From NCBI GenBank assembly GCA_001772865.1, contig MEVD01000015.1, forward strand, positions 9,084-73,083: a stretch of 64,000 nucleotides of DNA, written 5' to 3'. Positions 26,116-57,112 of the stretch are shown one piece after another. The notes below the pieces were generated by a model. The model saw nothing but the letters and a program-made list of their open reading frames with translations. It had not been told where the DNA came from and ran no database searches. This DNA comes from a candidate division WWE3 bacterium RIFCSPHIGHO2_02_FULL_38_14. GTDB lineage: Bacteria > Patescibacteriota > WWE3 > UBA101185 > UBA10185. The translations under genes were made by a program, and so were the position numbers. Every line of letters begins with the position of its first letter. Position 1 is the first letter of the stretch.

Positions 26116-26730
26116 ATGAAAGGTGCTGCTGTTGCTGACGAAACAGAGGATTTAAAAGGCTTGGAATATAACGCCTCAATAGAGTTACGAAATTTAGAAG
26201 CTGCTGAAAAAGAGCTAACTACATCAGACCACCTCTTAACTCCACAAGAAATTGTAGACTATTTCGAGCAGAGAATCAGCACTAATATTGCTTTAATTGA
26301 ATATTATAGAGGAAAGGGATTGGAAATGTATGAAGCTGATGAAGAAAGCGGCAAATCAGTATTATCCCGATTAGGAACAGCAGTGCATGATAATTCATTT
26401 GTTGAACATATGATAGGAAAACTTAAAGAAAGCGGTTCTTTGCAGGAGTTTGTTGCCATGAACCCACCCGCCTCAAATGGTAAATCCGGCACCTCACTAT
26501 TAAAGGAGGTTGCACAGGAATTGCACAATGCAAGGGCTCATGTGAAAAACAGAAACAACTTTGTAGAGACCTCTAATTTGGATGAGGCAATTGCTGATTT
26601 AATAGGAAATGAAAGATGGGTAAGGATTTTACAACATGAAAGCGAAAATATTGGAACAGCCTATATAGAACCAGAAGTAAGCTTCAATGCCGGTTTTCAG
26701 AAAATGGTATCATCTGAATCAAGTATTTAA
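26116..26730 (+). CDS. Hypothetical protein
   Basis: 204 aa, acidic, no motifs. Confidence 0.4.
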   Translation: MKGAAVADETEDLKGLEYNASIELRNLEAAEKELTTSDHLLTPQEIVDYFEQRISTNIALIEYYRGKGLEMYEADEESGKSVLSRLGTAVHDNSFVEHMIGKLKESGSLQEFVAMNPPASNGKSGTSLLKEVAQELHNARAHVKNRNNFVETSNLDEAIADLIGNERWVRILQHESENIGTAYIEPEVSFNAGFQKMVSSESSI

Positions 26731-26947: not shown

Positions 26948-27328
26948 TTAACTAAACAATTCTTTTAAACTTTTTGGAAATCCCTTCAAATACAAAAGCG
27001 CCAAAGGTGCTCCGATATTCGCAAACCGTTCCAAAAAGTCCCAAATAGGCTCGCCGGCAATAGGACGGATCAGCGCTGTGGAAAATGCCCAAAATGTCAT
27101 CCAAACCAGCGCCAGCCTCAAAGGTTTAATAAGTACTAAAACTGCCAGAGTAATATCCAAAGCGCCGATTATAGGCATAATTGTTGAGGCAGTTTCCGCG
27201 GGAATACCAACCGAAGTTAAATATGGAATCCAGCTTTGCTTAACCATCAGCCCGAACACACCATGTCCTATAAACTCACCGGCTACTGCTATTCTTAAAA
27301 TCCATTCTAATTTTTTATTTTTATCCAT
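26948..27328 (-). CDS. DoxX-family membrane protein
   Basis: 126 aa, 4 TM. N-terminus LRIAVAGEFIGHG is typical of DoxX. Confidence 0.6.
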   Translation of the reverse strand: MDKNKKLEWILRIAVAGEFIGHGVFGLMVKQSWIPYLTSVGIPAETASTIMPIIGALDITLAVLVLIKPLRLALVWMTFWAFSTALIRPIAGEPIWDFLERFANIGAPLALLYLKGFPKSLKELFS

Positions 27329-27358: not shown

Positions 27359-30300
27359 CTACTTTTCTGTGTGCGGACTTTCCCCATTACCAGAGGCTTC
27401 ATCAACGCTTTTTTTTGATCTACCTTTTAAAAGTCTTCTGGCATCAATTCCTTTAACAACAAATAGAGTACTGGCAATTACCACTGCCATTACAACGGCA
27501 GCAAACACTACGAAAATCATAATAATCAGAACCCGGCTTTTCGGCGAATAATTTGCATTAAATATTGCCGCAAGCTGTCCACCCAAAGGAGTAGTTGTGC
27601 CTTTGCTAATAACAAGGTTTCGCGACGTTGTTACTACCTGAGCTTCGGACCTTCCGCTTATTTCCGGTGAATACATTAAAGACACAGTCGCAGGCGGAGT
27701 TAGAAATTCACCTTCACTCACCACCCGCGCCTTATACGAATAACTAAATTTTCCAGTAGGAACACTGTACAACGACATTACTACTCCGTTTTGGGTATAC
27801 TCACGCACATAATAATTGTAGCCATAATTATAGTAATAATGAGTAATTAAATTCGAGTCGGATTTCTTTTCGTTATCGAATTTGTAATTTATAGGAACCA
27901 TGCCAGCAGGCAGCTGGTCTTCTAAAACTCCGTAACTTTCAGAATACGCCAGTCCTTCAACAATTAAATTAACATTTACAGTTTCGCCGACCGATAATGA
28001 ATAAGCGGGATTTTTGCTGTTTACATATTCTCTACTTATAGAAATTCCGTCTGATCTTTTTGATGTTTCAACTGCTGTTCTAAATTGATCCAGAACCATT
28101 GTGGAATACAACTGTCCGGTGCCTTCTTTATTAACTTTTAAATTTATTGCGTTTCCTTTTTTAATTCCCTTTAGATCTAAAGTATTTATTTTCTGCTTTG
28201 CGGATGTAACTGCTCCAGAGGAAATCACGTCATCGCCCAACATAACTTCATATTTAAAATCAGGATTCAGTTCACCGACAGATTTTGAATACTCAACCAG
28301 CGCCCGCATAACCTGGACAGTTCCAAAAGTGTTAGACCAGTAGTCGTGTTTTCTGCTGTTAGACAAATATCTTACTCCTTTAAAAATAGTATCTTTATCC
28401 ACATTAGCCATAATCAAAGCGTTTACTACCAAACCTGTTGAAGCATCTCTTGAACCGAACCTGTCTCCGGCACCACTTTCCCAGAATAAACTCTCTCCTT
28501 GTTTTACTGCTTTGCTCAATATTAATGAAACACCGTTTTTGGAGTTATCTTTGAAACCGTTTCTAATGTTCGCCATAACTCCATACGCAAGTACATCAGG
28601 AGTCATGTCATTACTCAAGCTCACAAAACTCTTTCCCTTATCCGAACCCATCACTGATAATGAATAAATCCTAATGGGATCCAATAACGAATTCGGCTGT
28701 GCATTTTCCAGATACATTTTGGAAGAAGTAAGTAAATCATCTACCGCTCCAGGTTTTAAAGTATCAAGCAAAACCAAATATTCCGCTACATATGAGGTAA
28801 TACCAACATCTGAAATCTTTGAGCTCCACCAACTCCACCCGCCGTCCCAATTCTGCATAGCCCTAAGCCTTTCCAATCCTTCGTCAATCATAGCGTCAGT
28901 ATTTTTTTCTTTCAAAGCTTCCGAAAGAATATCTGGATTACTGGCAGCAATTATTACGGGAACCAGTCTGCTGGTAGTTTGTTCAATACACCCGTAGGGA
29001 TAGTTAACCAAATATTTCATAGAGGAAAGCATCGATCCGGTTAAACTCGAAGATAAGAACAATTGATAATTTGATTCTGATTCTAAAACGTCTTCGGGGA
29101 TATTGATTTCATAAGATGCGGAGTCATATTTAGTTGAAGCGGTTTTTTCTTTATAACCGAAATTTTTAATTGGGAGCTCAACTGTTATGGTATCGGAATC
29201 TTCTTCATTTTCAGTTGAAACAGCCGAATAAGTAAATTTGGTTTTTTCGTTAGCGAACCCGGGAATATAATCCCAATAAATCTGTTTAACACTATTGGAA
29301 CTTATTTGAACCGGATTAGTTAAGCCACGTAAAGGAAGCTCCCTTGATCTGCTCAAATCATTACCGCCATTTTCCTCAACTTTCAGTGAAACTTCAAAAG
29401 TCGAATCATTGTCGGTGTAATTTTGAACCAAAGACGACATTACCATTTTATCTCCCACTCTCGCCAGATTCGGATGGATTGGCCTTACAATAACGTCTTT
29501 TGTAACCACAATTTCTTTTGTGGACTGCCCAACCTGTGTTTCACGGGTATCCGCTATGTCGGAAATTACCCAGGTCGTCAAATTATCGGGCAGTTTAACC
29601 GTAACCGTAGCCTTGCCGCTCTCATCGGTCTTTAAAGAAGGATTCCAATAAGCAGTATCTTTAAAAACGGTTCTGGGAGCTGATGTACCTCCTTTGTCAT
29701 TATGTACCCATACTCCACCGGCAAAATAAGTGTGGTAATTCTCAACTTCCAAGTTATAAACAGTAACACTGTCCAATACCCATTCCACCGATCTCACTTC
29801 CGCACTGCTTCCGTCCAATCCCAAAAGCAAGTCTCCCGTGTCAATATTTCCGGCGGTTTTCCAAGTGTCATTAATTCTTAAAACATGTTCGGGAGTTACT
29901 TTTAAGTCGCCGTTAATAATTAAATATCCTTCAACATCAGTTTTGTGGACATTTAAAACTTTGGCTTTAACCAATTCCCCCGAATCATAGCTCTTTCTGG
30001 TTAAAACATACTCACCGGGTTCAACTTCTGAAATATGTTTAAACACATTTCCTTCAGTAAGAACTAATGTATCTCCGGTAAAACACCCCCCGTATCCGCC
30101 GGCGGCATCCATGCTGATACTCTCCAAAGAATTTGAAAATCCCGTCTCGTTAAATCTTTCCGACCAAAAAGCGTCAAAAATCTTTCTGCCATCAGGAGGA
30201 AAAAGCTCGAAAAGTGCTTTATCTACAATCCACAGCGCCGTATCAGCCGAAACAGGCCTTCCGTTATTATCTTTGGTTTCCACCTGTATCTCAACATTCT

Positions 30301-32638
30301 CTCCCGGACCAAATTTCTCATCTTCGGTTCTGATTTTAACATTAAGCTTTTTCGACTCCGCCGGAACCGAAATATTTAAATACTTGCTCTCAAATTTCGA
30401 TCCCGAAAATATTCCCACATTTACAAAAATGTTCGGCATGTCAGTTTCCTCAAGTTTCAGCTCAAACACTTCTGAAGGCTTAGAAATATGCATTACCTGA
30501 TACCTGTTTACATAATTCCTGTGAAAAGAAATAAAGGCGTCAGTATTTATTTCCCTCGAAGAAATTAAGAGCTTCACGGTATCACCGGGCTTGTACTCTT
30601 TTTTATCCAACTGCATTTCAAATGCCTGAGGATTTTCCGAAGAATAAAACGGATACCTGTCATCATAAACCCACGAAAAAAATGTTTTTTCAAGAGTATT
30701 GCCGGCTTGGTCGGTGGCGGTAACTTTAAATCTGTAAGAACCCGGAAGATCAGGAGTAATCCTAAAACTCACATCACCTTTTGAATTTGTTTTTTCAGTC
30801 ACGTTTGCTATAGGATCCACCCGCATTTCATATGTGGGGTATTTTGACTCCGGTTTTTTAACTTCCACCCAATATTCCCGCGTCACCTGGGCATTAACTT
30901 GCACACCTGAAACATTAGAATCCCTGTAGGGAAATAATATTAGGGGAAGATCCAGTGGCTGATTGATTCTGTTAGAATACGAATATTCATCGCTTCTGAA
31001 AATTCCAAAATTTGCCGGATAGACTAAAATATTTCTTTGATCAGTGCTGGGATTGCCCGATCCGTCGTCGACCGTGGCCTCAAAAACATATATCTTCGGA
31101 TCAGGAGATTTTAAAGTAATTACATTAACGTCTGTTTCGCCGTTTTCATCCAAAAATATACTACCTTCAACTATTTTGTTCCCCGAACTGAACCAATACC
31201 CGTACCTGTAGTCGCTCTCGCTGAATCTTCTGGAATCGGAATAATATTCATATTCATAAATATCGTGGGCATAAACGGTATACGTTACAGAAACTCCGCT
31301 CAAAGGCTGCCCTGAAAAATAATTTCCTTTTAACTTAAAGTCAAATATATCGCCCGCAACCGCTTCGGTGATGGGAGTATCAACTTCAATAAAATATTCC
31401 GGCTTCCTGAAGTATTCAACATTAATATAAGCATAATTAACATCCGGCGAACCTGCGGCATTAATCATAATTGTATAGTTTCCTGTTTTGGTTTTTTCCG
31501 GAATCAACGACTCACCAAAAACCGTGCCATCGCCCGAAATATTTAGCCGTTCGTTGTAAATTATATTTTCGTTCTCATTCCAACCGTAATAAATTTTTAC
31601 ATTGGCCGCACCCTGTGGGATTGAATATTTGGCATCGTTATCCGACCTAATAATAGATTTAAAGTAAATGGTATCTCCGGGCCTGTAAATCGGTCGGTCA
31701 GTGAAAATAAAATATTTTGAATTCTTTGTTTTTTCCTCATACCCCGTCCAGCTCCATCCCCAGTTCAATGATGTAAGGTTCATAGGAATAAACGAAACAC
31801 TGCCACCTGATTCCGCAACCGCCAGATCCGCCCGCTCATTATAACTTGTTGTAGAAATTCCCTGGGCATCAAAACGGTCTTCATCGAGCTTTTCTATTCT
31901 GTTCAACAGGTTATAAGTGCGCACAACCCCTTCAGTAATGACCTTTTTGCTTTTATAATTTTGCCCCCAGAATATAAATTCGTTTTCGCCCTCGGTAGAC
32001 ATAACTCCGAAATTGCTCACAACGGCAAATGACTGTTTGTTTAATCCGCCGATATTTACATCAACCAGCCAGATCCCAGGCTTGCCCGAAGGCAGGTTTA
32101 CAGTTGTAGAAGCGCTTTTTACATCTGTAACATTCAGTGAAAATGAGCTCGCTTTTTCCAGACCGGATGTGCTGAGGCTTTTATCTACCTGATTAAACTC
32201 TTTGTCGTGTATCAAAAAGGTTAAAAGATTATTTGTGCCGGCATTATACAAATCCACCGTAAGCTTGCCGGTGACATTTTTAATATTTATTTCAATCTGG
32301 GGATTTTCAAGATCGCTGAAATTAATTAAACCCTGCATTCCACCGTAATAAAACTGTTCTCTGAGTGATTCGATTTTGCGGATGCCTATTTCGGGAGGAA
32401 TTTCTTCCGTACTTGCTAAAACCGCTGAATCACCCGCACTGCCGGGCTCAAATGCAACAGGCTCTTCCAGATTTTCCTGAGCAGTCTGCAAATTTGTTAA
32501 TTTACTTTTAAGTTCCGCGTTTCGGGCTAAACGGCTATTCTGTGATAAACCATCTAATTTAACGGTCTTAAAAATAAACAATCCGGAAAAAACAATTAAT
32601 AATAGCGAGAAATAGGTTATTAAGATCTTTTTAGGCAT
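27359..32638 (-). CDS. Alpha-2-macroglobulin family protein (thioester-containing), TM-anchored at both termini, with Hint/BIL domain inserted at the bait-region position
   Basis: 1759 aa. N-terminal TM/signal. Thioester motif YPYGCIEQTTSRL about aa 1217. TED-like MQNWDGGWSWW. Post-bait motif PRTVFKDTAYWNP. C-terminal TM IIMIFVVFAAVVMAVVIAS. Hint domain about aa 855-983. Confidence 0.85.
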   Translation of the reverse strand: MPKKILITYFSLLLIVFSGLFIFKTVKLDGLSQNSRLARNAELKSKLTNLQTAQENLEEPVAFEPGSAGDSAVLASTEEIPPEIGIRKIESLREQFYYGGMQGLINFSDLENPQIEINIKNVTGKLTVDLYNAGTNNLLTFLIHDKEFNQVDKSLSTSGLEKASSFSLNVTDVKSASTTVNLPSGKPGIWLVDVNIGGLNKQSFAVVSNFGVMSTEGENEFIFWGQNYKSKKVITEGVVRTYNLLNRIEKLDEDRFDAQGISTTSYNERADLAVAESGGSVSFIPMNLTSLNWGWSWTGYEEKTKNSKYFIFTDRPIYRPGDTIYFKSIIRSDNDAKYSIPQGAANVKIYYGWNENENIIYNERLNISGDGTVFGESLIPEKTKTGNYTIMINAAGSPDVNYAYINVEYFRKPEYFIEVDTPITEAVAGDIFDFKLKGNYFSGQPLSGVSVTYTVYAHDIYEYEYYSDSRRFSESDYRYGYWFSSGNKIVEGSIFLDENGETDVNVITLKSPDPKIYVFEATVDDGSGNPSTDQRNILVYPANFGIFRSDEYSYSNRINQPLDLPLILFPYRDSNVSGVQVNAQVTREYWVEVKKPESKYPTYEMRVDPIANVTEKTNSKGDVSFRITPDLPGSYRFKVTATDQAGNTLEKTFFSWVYDDRYPFYSSENPQAFEMQLDKKEYKPGDTVKLLISSREINTDAFISFHRNYVNRYQVMHISKPSEVFELKLEETDMPNIFVNVGIFSGSKFESKYLNISVPAESKKLNVKIRTEDEKFGPGENVEIQVETKDNNGRPVSADTALWIVDKALFELFPPDGRKIFDAFWSERFNETGFSNSLESISMDAAGGYGGCFTGDTLVLTEGNVFKHISEVEPGEYVLTRKSYDSGELVKAKVLNVHKTDVEGYLIINGDLKVTPEHVLRINDTWKTAGNIDTGDLLLGLDGSSAEVRSVEWVLDSVTVYNLEVENYHTYFAGGVWVHNDKGGTSAPRTVFKDTAYWNPSLKTDESGKATVTVKLPDNLTTWVISDIADTRETQVGQSTKEIVVTKDVIVRPIHPNLARVGDKMVMSSLVQNYTDNDSTFEVSLKVEENGGNDLSRSRELPLRGLTNPVQISSNSVKQIYWDYIPGFANEKTKFTYSAVSTENEEDSDTITVELPIKNFGYKEKTASTKYDSASYEINIPEDVLESESNYQLFLSSSLTGSMLSSMKYLVNYPYGCIEQTTSRLVPVIIAASNPDILSEALKEKNTDAMIDEGLERLRAMQNWDGGWSWWSSKISDVGITSYVAEYLVLLDTLKPGAVDDLLTSSKMYLENAQPNSLLDPIRIYSLSVMGSDKGKSFVSLSNDMTPDVLAYGVMANIRNGFKDNSKNGVSLILSKAVKQGESLFWESGAGDRFGSRDASTGLVVNALIMANVDKDTIFKGVRYLSNSRKHDYWSNTFGTVQVMRALVEYSKSVGELNPDFKYEVMLGDDVISSGAVTSAKQKINTLDLKGIKKGNAINLKVNKEGTGQLYSTMVLDQFRTAVETSKRSDGISISREYVNSKNPAYSLSVGETVNVNLIVEGLAYSESYGVLEDQLPAGMVPINYKFDNEKKSDSNLITHYYYNYGYNYYVREYTQNGVVMSLYSVPTGKFSYSYKARVVSEGEFLTPPATVSLMYSPEISGRSEAQVVTTSRNLVISKGTTTPLGGQLAAIFNANYSPKSRVLIIMIFVVFAAVVMAVVIASTLFVVKGIDARRLLKGRSKKSVDEASGNGESPHTEK
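29699..30075 (-). other. Hint (Hedgehog/intein) domain, bacterial-intein-like, embedded in the A2M ORF
   Basis: Block A CFTGDTLVLTEG (Cys1 codon 30073..30075), block B KVTPEHVL (TxxH), blocks F/G VYNLEVENYHTYFAGGVWVHN (Asn codon 29699..29701). The +1 residue is Asp (DKGG), so canonical splicing is not expected. Confidence 0.8.
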
Positions 32639-32748: not shown

Positions 32749-33669
32749 ATGACTAAACACCTGACACAAGAAGAAGCTGAACGAATAAATCCCGATGTAG
32801 TGGCTGAAAAACTAAGGGAAGATCATGATAAAGCTATAGAGCTATTAAAAGCTGCGGGGTGCCGCCCTGAATCAACATCACCAAACGAAATCAGAAAACG
32901 GCTGATACTGGAAGCACTTCCCGAAGGGTTTCTGGAAGAACTCCAAGGATACATACCCTATTATTATAAGAAAGAAGAAGAAATATTTGGAAAAAAACAC
33001 AAATTCGAAACAGAAGTAGAACGGAAAGAATTTGAAAAACAGCTATTAAGGGGTGCGCTTTTTGAAATGCTTGTCCAGTACGACAAAGAAATTACACCTC
33101 CCCCAAACGAAACGGCAATGGAAATACTGGGAATAATGCAAAATCCCGAAGTGTTCGGATTGGAAAAAACCATCGGGTATAAACGAAATCCCGATGAAAC
33201 TTACGTAGAAATAGATGAAAAAGGACAAATTTTTATTAAAGTAATAGGCGAGGCTAAATTAGGGCATGTGGACGAAAGATTTTTGAGCCAGATGGAAAGT
33301 TTTGACGAAAACCTTCAGGCTATGGCTAATGTCATAAACAAAATGACCACACAAGAACTACAGGAGCACGGACTAGTACACCTGGCAACCAGAAGTGCAC
33401 AGATAGACACGGAATTTTCGGACGCCGCCCAACAAGAAAGGCCAAAAACACTGATATTGGGAGACGGAACCTACGGACACACCAAAGTATTAGCTATACC
33501 TGCCGACAGACTGCAGGATTTTGAATCTATGATGAAATACGAGCATCAAAACGAAACCAACAGGGAAAGATATATCGAAATAATGGGGGATGTAACGGTG
33601 AAAAGATCGGCTTTTAAAGCAAGAGAAGTAGGAGATATGGCCGACGGGCTTTACGAGAAAATGTTTTAA
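32749..33669 (+). CDS. Hypothetical protein
   Basis: 306-aa acidic soluble protein. Divergent from the A2M gene. Confidence 0.45.
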   Translation: MTKHLTQEEAERINPDVVAEKLREDHDKAIELLKAAGCRPESTSPNEIRKRLILEALPEGFLEELQGYIPYYYKKEEEIFGKKHKFETEVERKEFEKQLLRGALFEMLVQYDKEITPPPNETAMEILGIMQNPEVFGLEKTIGYKRNPDETYVEIDEKGQIFIKVIGEAKLGHVDERFLSQMESFDENLQAMANVINKMTTQELQEHGLVHLATRSAQIDTEFSDAAQQERPKTLILGDGTYGHTKVLAIPADRLQDFESMMKYEHQNETNRERYIEIMGDVTVKRSAFKAREVGDMADGLYEKMF

Positions 33670-33831: not shown

Positions 33832-34135
33832 GAATAGGAACCCATAGCAGTCCGTTTCCTATATATTTCTTTTGATCACTGATAAAACCCGTTAGTTTAA
33901 AATTTAATTTTTCAAAACCAAATTCCGAAAACTTAAAAACTGGTTGCGTGTTTCAATAAATTGAATTGACATGACCTCACACTTACTCTACAATCAATAT
34001 AAGTACAAACATTATAAGAAATAGTTTAATAGCTTTCTATACGAATTTAACAAAAACTAATAGAGATATAGTTTCTGCACTTTTAAATATTAATTTGACT
34101 AAATAATTTTTTTTAGCATTATTGTTCATTAATCT

Positions 34136-34188
34136 CTCGGGAATTGAATTGTCAAGAAGATATGCTTCTTGATAGCTTTATTCCCGAG
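34136..34188. other. Nested perfect hairpin at the AT-rich to GC-rich transition
   Basis: Outer stem CTCGGGAAT/ATTCCCGAG (9 bp) encloses an inner palindrome TCAAGAAG-atatg-CTTCTTGA (8 bp). Confidence 0.6.
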
Positions 34189-34304
34189 GGTATGGGGGTC
34201 CGAGTCATAATTAAGACTCATACAACGTACCTCCCTTCCAGTTTCGACTGGATGAGCCCAAAAAACACGGACAAGCGTCTCCAAACCAGATGCTGCTAAT
34301 AGGG

Positions 34305-34551
34305 CATGAATTGGTTCCAGGAATGGACCGACTAGCCCGAGTCAGCGAAGAGCCATCAAAGGCATATGCGCTTTGATGGTATCCTCACGTGAATACGCGT
34401 GATGAGCTGGTTTGATTCGTGAGTTGACAGGACCGCGAGCGATCCGCGGGGTATAAAGTGAGTGCCTCTCTCTAACAGGGCAGAATAGAGGGAGTATTGA
34501 TTTCTTATATCTGGGTGACATGAATTGGTTCCAGGAATGGACTAACTAGCC
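34305..34551. repeat. Pair of 33-bp direct repeats (CATGAATTGGTTCCAGGAATGGAC[C/T][G/A]ACTAGCC) 214 bp apart in an ORF-free GC-rich segment
   Basis: Copies at 34305..34337 and 34519..34551, 31/33 identical. The surrounding 34189..34880 has no ORF of at least 60 aa on either strand and many local hairpins. Confidence 0.7.
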
Positions 34552-34904
34552 ACCCAGAAACAGAGAGATCAGCCATAGGTCGTTTAACTGTCTGTTTAAT
34601 CGACTTAAACATTTTCACAGACTCGGGTGAATGACTGGTAAACATTTACCTTGATGAGGGCTTACCCTTCTTCTTTCCAGGGCAGGGAGGAAAAAGTATG
34701 CTGTTGCCACCTGATGTTACTTAGATGGAGTAACAGCTTGGAGATGTCACCGGATAGGTAGAATTGATTTTCGAAACGTCTGCAGCGTTTGGAGAATTAG
34801 TCTACCCAAGGGTACGTGTTTACCCGTCCCTTCCGAAAGGGAAAAGCCAAAATTAGGTATACACCGTTCTGTGCCAACGTTTGGCACTATATGTGAGGAT
34901 AGAA

Positions 34905-35387
34905 ATGAAACGTTTGTATCTCCCACTAGTCATTGCGCTTCTCACAGCCATGCTCGTGGCTCCCGTGGCCATGGCCGCTGGTCCCGATCACGACAACAAC
35001 AACGCAAAGGCCAACGCCCCCGGTCAAGTCGCGAAGAACTCCGAAGACACCGAGGACAATGGTTCGACCTACGCTCCCGGCGTTCTGGCCAACGAGTCGG
35101 AAGACCCCGACGACAATGGCTCGGATTTCGCCCCCGGCCAGCTGAAGAAGGCTGAGGACGACACCGTCACCGATGCACCCGTCACCGACTCTACCGGCGA
35201 CAATTCCGACGGCGACAACAACAACGCAAAGGCCAACGCCCCCGGTCAAGTCGCGAAGAACTCCGAAGACACCGAGGACAATGGTTCGACCTACGCTCCC
35301 GGCGTTCTAGCCAACGAGTCGGAAGACCCCGACGACAATGGCAAGACGTACGCTCCCGGCCTGCTGAAGAAAGCAGAGCCACGCTAA
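34905..35387 (+). CDS. High-GC secreted repetitive acidic protein (D/N/E/G-rich, YAPG motifs)
   Basis: ATG at 34905 with GAGGA SD. Signal peptide MKRLYLPLVIALLTAMLVAPVAMA. The gene is about 63% GC against about 33% for the window. A 43-aa unit is repeated twice. The track ORF 34881 starts at an upstream TTG. Confidence 0.5.
   Translation: MKRLYLPLVIALLTAMLVAPVAMAAGPDHDNNNAKANAPGQVAKNSEDTEDNGSTYAPGVLANESEDPDDNGSDFAPGQLKKAEDDTVTDAPVTDSTGDNSDGDNNNAKANAPGQVAKNSEDTEDNGSTYAPGVLANESEDPDDNGKTYAPGLLKKAEPR
34991..35342. repeat. Two near-identical 130-bp direct repeats inside the GC-rich gene
   Basis: 34991..35120 and 35213..35342 differ at 1 position (ctggcc vs ctagcc). Confidence 0.8.
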
Positions 35388-35401
35388 GCGATCTGCCGCT
35401 T

Positions 35402-35452
35402 CCCGGTCCTCCAGTTCTTGTCACATCAATGATACAAGACTGGAGGGCCGGG
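35402..35452 (+). terminator. Long GC-rich hairpin downstream of the GC-rich gene (terminator-like, no U-tract)
   Basis: Stem CCCGGTCCTCCAGT / ACTGGAGGGCCGGG (13 of 14 bp) with a 23-nt loop containing its own TCTTGT..ACAAGA pairing. Begins 15 nt after the stop codon. Confidence 0.5.
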
Positions 35453-35541
35453 CGAACTATAAAATAACACTTAAAAAAATTAACTCCAAAATGTAGATAC
35501 TTTGTTAAAATAAGCACATATTTTAATTTAATATTTAAATA

Positions 35542-35871
35542 ATGAACAACTATGAAATAAAAGGTGAAATATTTACTTTTTTCGCAGCACTGTTTTTAGC
35601 ATTAAATACTATACTTGGTAGATATTTTGCTTTACAAATAGCACCATTATTACCATGGTTTTCCAGAAACGTAATTAATTTTCTGATTTTACTCACATTA
35701 CTCAAATTATATAAACCAAAAGGTTATATAAAGATTAATAAAAACGATTTAGCAAAGATTTTCTTAAGTGGAATTTTCTTTACATTCTCCAAAGAGCTGG
35801 CGAACTTCTTTGAAAATTTAATGGAGATGGAAAAAGAAATACAAATAGTTCTCTCTGCTCGATTTATCTAA
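35542..35871 (+). CDS. Small hydrophobic ORF, possibly a remnant of a degraded membrane-protein gene
   Basis: 109 aa hydrophobic. No motifs. Followed by 380 bp with only broken reading frames. Confidence 0.3.
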   Translation: MNNYEIKGEIFTFFAALFLALNTILGRYFALQIAPLLPWFSRNVINFLILLTLLKLYKPKGYIKINKNDLAKIFLSGIFFTFSKELANFFENLMEMEKEIQIVLSARFI

Positions 35872-36255
35872 TCCTGGATTGACTTCATGGATTTATTATA
35901 TACATTATAATTTCTTTTGTTAGTATTAATAATATAAATGACTTGTTATATTTATTACAAATATGATGGTAAATGCGGACTTGTTAGCTAACAGAATATA
36001 TTTTCTAAAAAATCTACCAGACGCATCTTAGAAAACAGTAATATTAAAATCTATTTTAGGACTATTTTTAGGAATCTTTCTGTCATTATTAATAAATTTA
36101 ACAATTTTTAGATTAATAGGATTAACAAATTTAGATTATTTAACAAGTCTTATTGTTAGTATATTGGTTCAAGATATTACACTATTAATAATAATTTATA
36201 TTTTATTCCATAACTCTTCAAAAGAAGACATTTTTAATTAACTATTTATAGAAAT

Positions 36256-36492
36256 TTGCGAAAAAGAGGGATTTTAATCGCTCTCATAATCAGATCTATA
36301 CTCTTTTCTATTTTTCATGGGAACTCAAGTATCCCTTTCTCATTTCTTTTTGGTATTGTCATGGCATTATATTACGAATTTACTAATAATTTCCCTAGAA
36401 CTGTAATAATTCACGCATTACACAATTATATAAATACTTACTATGCGACATTTTTACTTCTAGTTTTTTTCAAACAGCTTACAAATTTGTGA
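36256..36492 (+). pseudogene. C-terminal fragment of a CPBP (CAAX protease/Abi) family intramembrane protease
   Basis: Contains CPBP motif 2 (SIFHGNSS, FxxxH) and motif 3 (IHALHNYIN, HxxxN), but the EExxxR motif-1 region upstream is in disrupted frames. Confidence 0.45.
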
Positions 36493-36519
36493 ACTTTGAT
36501 CGTTGTATTAGACCTATAG

Positions 36520-36548
36520 TTGACAATTATCCGTTAGTATTATAAAAT
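36520..36548 (+). promoter_or_regulatory. Candidate sigma70-like promoter of pgsB-pgsCC copy 1
   Basis: Perfect -35 TTGACA at 36520..36525, and TATAAA/TAAAAT in the 15-17-bp spacing window, about 35 nt upstream of the ATG. The same TTGACA architecture occurs upstream of copy 2. Confidence 0.4.
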
Positions 36549-36581
36549 CCCCCCAACCAGTATTGTACTATTGGTATTATT

Positions 36582-37877
36582 ATGATTATTGTTGCTGCAA
36601 CAACATTGCTATTTTTAATATTTGTATTACTACAAAACTACTCGTATAGCCTTTTATTAAGAGGCGTGCCCTATAGAGTTCATGTTAATGGCATCCGGGG
36701 GAAGTCGTCTGTGACGCGCTATATCGCAGCAATCTTCAGAAAAGCTGATTTTATTACTTATGCAAAAACAACAGGTACGCAAGCTAGAATAATTGATAAT
36801 GAAGGTAATGAAAGTGAAGCACCAAGAAATGGCTCTCCTAATGTAAACGAGCAAATAACTATTATTAAGGACTTCATTAGCAAGGGTGCAAAGTCCATAG
36901 TTTTAGAATGTATGGCAATAAATCCGTTGTATCAAGAGTGGCTGGAAAATAAAGTTATTAAATCAAATATTTCAGTTATCACTAATGTAAGAACCGATCA
37001 TACAGATTATATGGGTGACACTTTGGAATCAATAGCAAAATCCTTAGCTACAACTATACCTACAAATGGCATATTAATTACGGGCGAAGAAAATCCGGAT
37101 ATTATAAATATATTAAAAAATAAATGCGAAAAAAATAACACAAGAATGATAGTTGCGGATAAATCAACTGTGAGCGATGAGGAATTAAATAATTTTGATT
37201 ATTATACCCATAAAGAAAATATTGCTATAGCTCTGGAAGTCGCTAAAATTATCGGTCTTGAGAGAAGTAAAGCAATGGAAAGTATGTTTAACGCTAACCC
37301 CGATCCCGGAAACTTTAAAATAAAATCCATAATGTATAAAAATAAGAACATAGCGTGGGCAAATCTTTTTGCAATTAACGATAAAGAAAGCTTTATTAAT
37401 GTGACAAAGGAAATATATTCACTTTATCCTAAATACACAAAAGTAATAATTCTAAATAACAGGTTTGACAGACCCAGCAGAGTAAAGTTGTTTACTGATA
37501 TTGTAACTAAAGAACACCCGGTTAATAAAATAGTAACGTTCGGTGATTTTGAAGAAGCAGTTAATAAATATGCTAAAAATAATGGTTTTAATTTAAATTA
37601 TGTTTTAAACCTTGGCAACTCCAGCAGAAAAAAACTAATTGAAGGCGAAGAACTATTTGACGCAATAATAGAGAGTATTAAGCAGAAAAATATTCTTTTC
37701 GTAGGCGCAATAAATACTCATACAGAACAGGCAGACAGGCTTTTAGAATGGATGTCTAATTTCGATAATAATTTACAAAAATTAGAAACCAAAGAAGCAT
37801 TAGTAAATACTTCTAATAATAATCTGTCATCTGGGAAAATTGGTAAAAATTTTAATTTAAGGGGGACACATGAGTAA
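36582..37877 (+). CDS. pgsB: PgsB/CapB-family amide ligase (poly-gamma-glutamate synthase-like, Mur-ligase fold)
   Basis: Family-diagnostic VNGIRGKSSVTRYIAA, AKTTGT.ARII, ECMAINPLYQ, ITNVRTDHTDYMG, TIPTNGILIT. Colinear with B. subtilis PgsB. Confidence 0.85.
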   Translation: MIIVAATTLLFLIFVLLQNYSYSLLLRGVPYRVHVNGIRGKSSVTRYIAAIFRKADFITYAKTTGTQARIIDNEGNESEAPRNGSPNVNEQITIIKDFISKGAKSIVLECMAINPLYQEWLENKVIKSNISVITNVRTDHTDYMGDTLESIAKSLATTIPTNGILITGEENPDIINILKNKCEKNNTRMIVADKSTVSDEELNNFDYYTHKENIAIALEVAKIIGLERSKAMESMFNANPDPGNFKIKSIMYKNKNIAWANLFAINDKESFINVTKEIYSLYPKYTKVIILNNRFDRPSRVKLFTDIVTKEHPVNKIVTFGDFEEAVNKYAKNNGFNLNYVLNLGNSSRKKLIEGEELFDAIIESIKQKNILFVGAINTHTEQADRLLEWMSNFDNNLQKLETKEALVNTSNNNLSSGKIGKNFNLRGTHE

Positions 37878-38847
37878 TCAAATAAACAGTTTGGAAATGT
37901 TAAGTTTAATTTTATTCATAGGAGTAGTAACTTCTTTAATAGTTCGAAGAAAAACGGGTATAAATCCAGGAGGCATAATTACTGCTCCATTTCTGGTATT
38001 AAGTTTTTATTATTCTTTCATTTGGGGCGTTACATTAATTATAATAAGCCTTTTGATTTATAAAATTTATAACAAATATTTACATAGTTTTTATTATGGT
38101 AGGACTCCGATGTACATCTATAGTATTATGTCCGTGCTGTTTGTATATGCAATTGCCTGGATATACGGCTATTTTAAAATCATCCCGGACTTTAATATTA
38201 ATTTCGTTTATGGTCTTATCCTACCCGCTATTCTGACAGTGGCATTAAGAAAACAAGGTGTGAGAAAGACAATGATTTACACTGCTATCACCGTAGTCAT
38301 AACAGCTTTAGTATCCTTGGTGATATTTTATATATCGAATAATATATTTCAATATAACTTCTACTATATGGAACAACTTAGAGCGTCAACAAACAATATT
38401 ACTTTAAGTACCGGCTTTATCTTATTCTTTGCCTCTATCATTTCAAGTTATGTAATTTACTATTTTACCAAAATAAAATCAGGAGGATATATAGTACTTC
38501 CGTTTTTAGCTTTACTTTTATTTAACCCAAAAAGCTTATTAATCTTTGTAGTTACGTTAATATTTATGCATCTACTGTTTAAGGCAATCAGACACTATAC
38601 CTTGATAGTCGGCATAACCAGGTATACATTTGTGCTTTGTACTGCAATATTAGTGGTTTGGGTAATAGAATCAGCTGGTTTGAGAATTGACCCCACGTTT
38701 TCACCGTTTTTAGGAGCGAATATATTTCCTGCTTTAGCCCTGGCATCAATAACAAACGATTTTTCAGTCCAAAAGGCACGAAATACTGCTCCAATGCTAA
38801 TTTTAAACTTGATAATTGTAGGAATAGTGTATTTTTTTGTCAGATAA
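37870..38847 (+). CDS. pgsC: Tandem-duplicated (fused) PgsC/CapC-like membrane protein
   Basis: 325 aa. Both halves individually resemble about 150-aa PgsC (half 1 GINPGGIITAPF...ILPAILTVALRKQG; half 2 SGGYIVLPFLALL...IFPALALASITNDFSVQKAR). Start overlaps the pgsB stop (ATGAGTAA). Confidence 0.7.
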   Translation: MSNQINSLEMLSLILFIGVVTSLIVRRKTGINPGGIITAPFLVLSFYYSFIWGVTLIIISLLIYKIYNKYLHSFYYGRTPMYIYSIMSVLFVYAIAWIYGYFKIIPDFNINFVYGLILPAILTVALRKQGVRKTMIYTAITVVITALVSLVIFYISNNIFQYNFYYMEQLRASTNNITLSTGFILFFASIISSYVIYYFTKIKSGGYIVLPFLALLLFNPKSLLIFVVTLIFMHLLFKAIRHYTLIVGITRYTFVLCTAILVVWVIESAGLRIDPTFSPFLGANIFPALALASITNDFSVQKARNTAPMLILNLIIVGIVYFFVR

Positions 38848-57041: not shown

Positions 57042-57070
57042 TTGACAAACCCCCAAAAGTGTACTATAAG
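57042..57070 (+). promoter_or_regulatory. Candidate sigma70-like promoter of pgsB-pgsCC copy 2
   Basis: Perfect -35 TTGACA 57042..57047, 17-bp spacer, -10 TATAAG 57065..57070 with upstream TGt. The ORF-track GTG start at 57059 lies inside this promoter, so the real start is the ATG at 57113. Confidence 0.5.
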
Positions 57071-57112
57071 TTAGCCACCTACCCGAAAAGATACCAAATT
57101 CTAATTCAAAAT

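Follow-up and report, generated by a model that had tools for sequence, protein, structure and literature searches.

Can an alpha-2-macroglobulin (A2M) remove part of its own bait? To our knowledge, every studied protein of the A2M family depends for its activation on an outside protease that cuts the bait region. The locus described here, located at 27359..32638 on the reverse strand of a 64,000-nucleotide stretch of the contig MEVD01000015.1 (this whole stretch is referred to as the window), encodes a thioester-type A2M of 1759 aa that is predicted to be anchored at the cell surface and in which a bacterial intein-like (BIL) domain is inserted into the bait loop. From the conserved features described below, we suggest that this domain excises itself from the bait, and we give a probability of roughly 0.6 to such self-excision being real and functionally relevant. 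The host is a candidate division WWE3 bacterium, a lineage of the Candidate Phyla Radiation (CPR)/Patescibacteria. The open reading frame (ORF) is single and uninterrupted from ATG to stop, and since the sequence has a GC content of 35-40%, a length of 1759 codons is far beyond chance. Furthermore, the identical protein is present on 22 public contigs (e.g., OGC45633.1 from a candidate division WWE3 bacterium, assembly GCA_001772935.1).

The BIL domain and its place in the bait

By every criterion that can be tested on sequence, residues 852-980 (129 aa; 29699..30085, on the reverse strand like all features of this gene) are a type A BIL domain, i.e., a domain of the Hint (Hedgehog/intein) fold. 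The best Pfam match of the insert was PT-HINT (PF07591), which covered residues 866-981 with 37.7 bits against a cutoff of 27.7. Weaker Pfam matches to Vint, Hint, and Intein_splicing extended from residue 847 onward, and the NCBIfam model intein_Cterm (TIGR01443) scored above its cutoff. The best sequence match of the insert in the PDB was 2lwy, a 'bacterial intein-like domain' (9.2e-07). The catalytic residues of the domain are Cys852 (Cys1), T915-P-E-H918 in block B, VYNLE in block F, and the terminal pair H979-N980. Along the junctions between the A2M_BRD and A2M domains, the sequence AAGGYGG precedes and CFTGDTLVLT follows the first BIL junction, whereas VYNLEVENYHTYFAGGVWVHN precedes and DKGGTSAPRTVFKDTAYWNP follows the second one.

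Structure prediction led to the same assignment. When the BIL domain was modelled together with its flanks by AlphaFold2, the predicted local distance difference test (pLDDT) score of the domain was >90 and that of both flanks <50. A 1200-residue model agrees with this, having a folded BIL domain and disordered tethers at residues 831-849 and 983-996. In a Foldseek search, the top match was BIL2 of Tetrahymena BUBL (6y75/6tmm; E 7e-11, TM-score about 0.72-0.79), followed by the C. thermocellum BIL domain 2lwy (1.4e-09). The BIL matches had a probability of 1.00, and mini-inteins and Hedgehog domains ranked below them.

The insertion site is the bait loop, as the BIL domain interrupts a disordered stretch bounded by the two Pfam domains found on either side of the bait in all A2Ms, namely the bait-region domain A2M_BRD (residues 674-812; 30203..30619; PF07703, 57 bits) and the A2M domain (residues 995-1085; 29384..29656; PF00207, 67.8 bits). 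The tether before the BIL domain (residues 831-851, ending in SISMDAAGGYGG; 30086..30148) is predicted to be disordered, with pLDDT <50, and closes with an invariant Gly at position -1. The tether after it (residues 981-996, DKGGTSAPRTVFKDTA; 29651..29698) starts with Asp, a non-nucleophile, at +1 and an invariant Lys at +2, and leads into the conserved R..FKDTAYWNP. The BIL domain therefore ends just before the post-bait motif cited by the initial annotation of this locus, which had recognized the A2M correctly but had taken its bait as an ordinary one and overlooked the Hint/BIL domain at 852-980. From residue 978 onward (978-1274), the protein aligns to human A2M from residue ~695/721, a position within the human bait region. 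When the bait region without the BIL domain was aligned directly to A2Ms of solved structure, no match was obtained at E<=0.01; thus, the insert is assigned to the bait on the basis of the flanking Pfam domains, the human A2M alignment, and the predicted disorder.

Type A BIL domains end in His-Asn as inteins do and lack the +1 nucleophile. Their predominant products are those of N- and C-terminal cleavage, and they can also splice when the amine freed by Asn cyclization attacks the N-terminal thioester (PMC4031507, PMC7664689). The domain described here shares with the C. thermocellum type A BIL (PDB 2lwy) the Hint fold, Cys1, TxxH, the His-Asn end, and the lack of both a +1 nucleophile and an endonuclease. 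Also in common with this type, it is located in a secreted or surface protein, within a region that is variable (PMC4031507). Unlike the known type A BILs, it sits in the bait loop of a thioester protein, has an invariant +2 Lys and a Gly-Gly-Gly N-flank, and its activity is predicted from sequence.

The best structural match, BIL2 of Tetrahymena thermophila BUBL1 (6y75/6tmm), has an N-extein that likewise ends in Gly-Gly. In its reported chemistry, a Lys epsilon-amine attacks the BIL thioester, a role that the invariant Lys982 could mimic. In contrast to BUBL1 BIL2, which is eukaryotic and has a ubiquitin-like N-extein, no ubiquitin-like domain is present here, and the identity is about 23%. 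The fold and the blocks A, B, F, and G of class 1 mini-inteins (Mtu RecA, Ssp/Npu DnaB, gp41-1) are recognizable as well. However, the +1 residue is never Cys, Ser, or Thr, and the insertion is not in a conserved site of an essential replication or repair protein. Furthermore, unlike the sporadic inteins, the BIL domain is vertically inherited and near-universal within its clade.

Conservation and inheritance of the BIL domain

The family comprises 121 members, i.e., the query and 120 homologs among the matches listed. The BIL domain was found at the same site in 115 of these 120 homologs with a length of 125-129 aa, giving 116 carriers together with the query, and the overall identity of the homologs to the query was mostly 37-44%. 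Named sources include Daviesbacteria, Gottesmanbacteria, Roizmanbacteria, Pacebacteria, and 'Patescibacteria group'. In a scan of species-representative genomes, 65 loci with the domain were identified in several CPR lineages, among them WWE3, Woykebacteria, Amesbacteria, Blackburnbacteria, Woesebacteria, Moraniibacteriota, and Saccharibacteria. Many contigs of metagenome-assembled genomes with typical CPR-type BIL-A2M genes (L005, L007, L008, L010-L012, and others) bear the title 'uncultured Gammaproteobacteria/Pseudomonadales/Bdellovibrionales', which is probably a wrong label for bins of Patescibacteria.

Residues needed for the chemistry are nearly invariant across the carriers. Gly-1, Phe2, the block B His, the block F Asn, the terminal His-Asn, and the +2 Lys are each found in 116/116 carriers, and Cys1, the block B Thr, and the +3 Gly in 115/116. 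The +1 residue is Gln in 74 carriers, Glu in 20, Asp in 19, and Asn in 3, and is Cys, Ser, or Thr in 0/116.

The mean pairwise identity of the BIL domain (0.535) lies inside the range of the A2M domains (0.40-0.64), indicating that it evolves at the rate of its host protein. Pairwise identities of the BIL domain and of the rest of the protein correlate with r=0.79, the corresponding values for control domains being 0.87-0.90. The GC content of the BIL segment and the GC content at its third codon positions (GC3) are inside the gene's own spread, and a recent acquisition of the Hint domain was rejected on this match with the rest of the gene. Identity to the query BIL is 44-56% for the A2M-borne BILs and 32-43% for BILs of other proteins. 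The BIL domain occupies the same junction in longer A2M variants, to which Ig-like domains are added. Taken together, these observations indicate one old insertion that has been inherited vertically under purifying selection.

Alternative assignments within the Hint superfamily were considered and rejected. A canonical class 1 intein is ruled out by the lack of a +1 Cys, Ser, or Thr in every carrier and by the lack of an endonuclease, as no homing endonuclease was found in the 129-aa insert. Its distribution rules it out as well, with ~96% retention, a divergence that co-varies with the host, and a site in a variable loop. A pretoxin-HINT domain of polymorphic toxins, for which PF07591 is named, would be followed by a toxin domain, whereas A2M, CUB-like, thioester (TED), and bMG10 domains and a transmembrane helix, and no toxin domain, lie downstream here. 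Hedgehog/Hog, in which a Hint domain lacking the terminal Asn cleaves at the N-terminal side only and precedes a sterol-recognition region, does not fit either; the domain ends with His-Asn after 129 aa without any extension, and the Hedgehog fold ranked below BILs and inteins.

The same BIL subtype was also observed in non-A2M proteins, where it forms tandem arrays of 2-5 copies (P0124, P0126, P0127, P0128, P0131, P0142, P0146, P0162, P0196). In these arrays, the terminal VHN of one copy is linked through K-G(GG) to the initial CF of the next one. The first copy directly follows a signal-peptide-like A.ARGGGG in several arrays, and Tim44-like, pilin-type N_methyl, or Ig/cadherin-like domains accompany the arrays. 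The family of this BIL subtype amounts to 1541 representative clusters at E<=1e-10.

Proposed self-excision and the alternatives to it

In ECAM, the A2M of E. coli, the bait is a disordered tether, and its cleavage displaces the CTMG-TED contact and exposes the thioester (PMC4498604). In the WWE3 protein, after export and folding, Cys852 would attack the carbonyl of Gly851 (N-S acyl shift) to give a backbone thioester, and Asn980 would cyclize and cut the C-terminal junction, whereby the BIL domain would leave the protein. Since a +1 Cys, Ser, or Thr is lacking, two fates are possible for the A2M halves. They could be rejoined, if either the alpha-amine freed at residue 981 or the epsilon-amine that the invariant Lys982 carries attacks the thioester; the product would have a short Gly-rich bait resembling that of the BIL-less relatives. 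Otherwise, a nicked two-chain protein would result, each chain keeping its own membrane anchor, and any fraction that undergoes cleavage only would be equivalent to an A2M with a cleaved bait, firing the trap without a protease. BUBL BIL2 is known to make an isopeptide between a Lys epsilon-amine and a C-terminus, and it can conjugate its Gly-Gly-ended N-extein to several substrates (PMC8616854).

Self-excision as a maturation step is most likely the core function of the BIL domain, and we favour maturation over triggering. The conservation of both junctions suggests that complete removal was selected, not a single cut. As the two exteins are parts of one folded body, intramolecular ligation should be favoured. 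Furthermore, the bait of the BIL-less homologs (GGG-GG..R) roughly equals the product expected after excision.

Some observations weigh against this reading. Five of the 120 homologs have no BIL domain; their bait reads AE.GGG-GG..R.FKDTAYWNP, and the x-Lys that follows the BIL domain in carriers is also absent. These homologs fall in at least four lineages, with carriers as their nearest relatives; therefore, the A2M works without a BIL domain, whose benefit is unclear. In the closest homolog (P0001, 74% identity), Gly replaces Cys1 and the remaining BIL domain is conserved; this may be a natural variant with a dead N-junction or an assembly error. The activity of the BIL domain is read from conserved residues only, and conserved catalytic residues are also to be expected of an 'addictive' intein-like passenger. 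Besides, the sequence does not predict whether ligation or cleavage would be the outcome, and the topology on which the mechanism draws is a hydropathy inference.

The passenger just mentioned is the alternative that has to be considered most closely, although we regard it as unlikely. The BIL domain would then be a selfish or neutral degenerate mini-intein that invaded the bait loop, splices out, and contributes nothing, persisting only since the A2M would be crippled by point mutations that prevent the insert from being removed. The BIL-less homologs nested among carriers fit such a history, as do the Moranbacteria, which include both carriers and BIL-less homologs, and the A2M family functions elsewhere without a BIL domain. 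The scatter of the same BIL subtype across many unrelated surface proteins points the same way, and catalytic conservation is what intein 'addiction' predicts. However, neither a +1 nucleophile nor a homing endonuclease is present, and ~96% of the listed homologs retain the BIL domain across phylum-level divergence, even though deletion should be easy from the most indel-tolerant loop as compared to a conserved active site. Vertical inheritance, a rate equal to that of the host protein, and native composition also speak against a passenger, and since type A BILs mostly cleave and do not splice, the domain would not be neutral in a bait loop.

A different possibility is that cleavage itself is the selected outcome, and that the BIL domain serves as a built-in trigger or second warhead. 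The Gly851-Cys852 thioester would react with water, with a small nucleophile, or with another protein's lysine, and the cut bait would fire the TED thioester and/or couple the N-terminal chain to a target, resulting in a self-firing covalent 'harpoon' or in deposition on the surface of the episymbiont itself or of its host. This reading accords with the mainly cleaved products of type A BILs, with the transfer of a Gly-Gly-ended N-extein onto lysines by BUBL BIL2 (the N-extein here ending in an invariant GG(G) across the 116 carriers), and with bait cleavage alone being sufficient for thioester exposure in A2Ms. The separate anchors would hold both chains on the cell after the cut, and the only two cysteines of the protein are both thioester formers. 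On the other hand, a single cut needs one junction and both are conserved. Without regulation, constitutive self-firing would use up the trap to no purpose, and neither a regulator nor a conserved partner gene turned up in the 65 loci. The BIL-less homologs are double-anchored too, so the anchors are not linked to the BIL domain, and the argument for a trigger is purely inferential. We therefore consider a selected cleavage outcome very doubtful. The broader idea of a protease-independent trigger and/or a second backbone-thioester warhead in the bait of a complement-like protein, with a self-cleavage that is either spontaneous or induced by a nucleophile or by a lysine of a contacted protein, and by which an episymbiotic CPR cell could covalently tag or attach to a surface, seems quite unlikely. 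Far less probable still is a non-catalytic insert, in which the Hint domain would stay in place as a bulky bait module, a decoy substrate, or a spacer that presents the linkers. A confidently folded domain on two disordered, protease-accessible linkers would suit this role, as would P0001, which has kept the rest of the domain without Cys1. Nevertheless, a passive spacer would have no need of the residues for the N-S acyl shift and Asn cyclization, which are near-invariant in 116 sequences. Self-excision as maturation accounts for the conservation of both junctions and is the reading we retain.

In the complement proteins C3, C4, and C5, the region equivalent to the bait is cut into beta and alpha chains and carries the anaphylatoxin domain, which is removed on activation. 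A removable folded module at this position thus recurs within the superfamily, and C4 and C5 appear among the sequence and fold matches of the WWE3 protein. In contrast to C3, C4, and C5, with their processing by furin and convertase and their all-helical anaphylatoxin, the WWE3 module is predicted to be self-removing.

The combination of A2M and Hint domains is visible in precomputed Pfam annotations. Full-text searches, the journal coverage of which is incomplete, found no literature in which macroglobulin occurs together with 'Hint domain' or 'bacterial intein-like', and none of the literature listed for alpha-2-macroglobulin, intein, and bait region contained 'intein'. Publications on inteins and Patescibacteria gave passing mentions, and none of them concerned this domain as judged by title or abstract. 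In the literature found, CPR A2Ms are mentioned only in passing, as a possible protection against host proteases in Vampirococcus (PMC8080830). The new element would thus be the self-processing bait. If true, this would be the first trigger built into an A2M itself, or at least the first case of a bait whose maturation needs protein splicing chemistry. The biological role of BIL domains is still largely conjectural, and they would gain a defined context. The system would also be a widespread one on the surface of CPR/Patescibacteria. These bacteria presumably live in attachment to other cells, and in such a symbiosis either a shield against proteases or a covalent thioester 'harpoon' could be of importance. 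Besides, a compact BIL domain of 129 aa that dispenses with a nucleophilic +1 residue may be of interest to protein engineers.

Architecture, anchoring, and genomic surroundings of the A2M

Judged by its sequence and predicted fold, the protein carrying the BIL domain is an ordinary though divergent member of the thioester-type A2M family. Five A2M-family Pfam domains, each above its curated cutoff, were found; in addition to A2M_BRD and A2M, these are MG2 (residues 308-401; 31436..31717; PF01835, 61 bits), TED_complement (PF07678, residues 1204-1298), and the C-terminal macroglobulin domain bMG10 (residues 1531-1659; 27662..28048; PF17973, 71 bits). The helical TED as a whole spans about residues 1201-1454 (28277..29038), as judged from the PF07678 match, alignments to the TEDs of C4 and ECAM, and an all-helical block in the model. 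In a phmmer alignment, the thioester motif GCIEQ (residues 1216-1220; 28979..28993) stands opposite the CLEQ thioester motif of E. coli ECAM/YfhM, and GC[VIT..]EQ is kept in 121/121 family members. The post-bait motif RTVFKDTAYWNP comes after the bait, and FKDTAYWNP is nearly invariant among the 120 homologs. Cys852 and Cys1217, both thioester-forming residues, are the only cysteines in the whole protein, and 90/121 family members have exactly two cysteines. Hence, the initial annotation was right in describing a 1759-aa A2M homolog with an intact thioester, a TED-like region, and an R..F..TA.WNP motif in a small low-GC genome.

E. coli ECAM/YfhM (4.6e-21) is the top solved relative by sequence, followed by Salmonella A2M. 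An AlphaFold2 model of residues 500-1699 was rich in beta-sandwiches (mean pLDDT 81), and its best PDB matches were Salmonella A2M 4u48 and ECAM 5a42 (E about 1e-47; best fold match 9e-48), with human A2ML1, complement C5, TEP1, and CD109 ranking lower. The protein thus shares with the bacterial type-1 A2Ms, ECAM/YfhM (PDB 5a42, 4ziq, 4rtd) and SaA2M (4u48), the ring of macroglobulin (MG) domains, the bait-region domain, a CUB-TED with a CxEQ thioester, and a C-terminal MG10. The identity is about 15%, and ECAM differs in having a pbpC neighbour, a host outside the CPR, and a bait without the 129-aa BIL domain.

Membrane anchors were called by Kyte-Doolittle hydropathy in 19-mer windows. Over the whole protein, hydrophobic 19-mers were found at residues 5-23 (ILITYFSLLLIVFSGLFIF, preceded by KK; 32570..32626) and 1703-1721 (27476..27532), with none internal. 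The second segment is a predicted transmembrane helix followed by a basic, presumably cytoplasmic tail (KGIDARRLLKGRSKK), and the first one may be either a signal anchor or a signal peptide that remains uncleaved. Basic residues flank each hydrophobic segment on its predicted cytoplasmic side; the N-terminal KK and the basic C-terminal tail fit an N-in, ectodomain-out, C-in topology. An ectodomain of ~1650 aa would accordingly lie outside the cytoplasmic membrane, anchored at both ends. Like ECAM, the WWE3 protein is predicted to be anchored to the cytoplasmic membrane and to face outward. Unlike ECAM, which is a lipoprotein, it would be held by a hydrophobic anchor at the N-terminus and by a transmembrane helix at the C-terminus. 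The N-terminal region has no Cys and thus no lipobox, so the protein is not a lipoprotein, and a lipobox-like motif was found in just 1/121 family members. Both the helices at the two termini and the departure from ECAM anchoring had been noticed in the initial annotation. The N-terminal hydrophobic segment is present in 104/121 family members and the C-terminal one in 113/121, and the BIL-less homologs likewise have both; the double anchor is therefore a general trait of CPR A2Ms and not peculiar to the WWE3 gene.

As had been noted earlier, no pbpC partner lies nearby; the 20 ORFs scanned across the window contained no transglycosylase or transpeptidase (PbpC-type) domain. None of the seven window neighbours (0/7) recurred beside the homologous gene in the 65 genome loci, where PbpC-like, DoxX, and sortase genes were considered as conserved partners. 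The adjacent gene that had been called DoxX is indeed an ORF beside the A2M gene (126 aa; 26948..27328, downstream), but its match to DoxX_3 is weak and below threshold (22.9 bits, cutoff 25), and it is not conserved beside homologous A2M genes. This neighbour is thus incidental. Scans for promoters and terminators around the A2M gene gave sites no more numerous than in shuffled sequence. A divergent ORF of 306 aa upstream of the A2M gene (32749..33669, forward strand) and one of 204 aa downstream (26116..26730, forward strand) have no Pfam match and do not recur at the homologous loci.

Further along the window, a region of ~2.7 kb after tRNA-Gln (33832..36581) has the highest GC content of the window (0.42) and only short overlapping ORFs. 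One of these is a 109-aa fragment with a weak EamA match, and a comparison of the region with Rfam yielded nothing at E<=0.1; the region may consist of gene remnants or represent a non-coding element of a type not yet described. It is followed at 36582..38847 by a protein with a Mur-ligase middle domain and then a CapC-family protein, which together look like a CapB/CapC pair of the poly-gamma-glutamate synthesis type. A second Mur-ligase-like gene is located further along at 57059..58387. Such capsule-type chemistry is unexpected in a reduced CPR genome.

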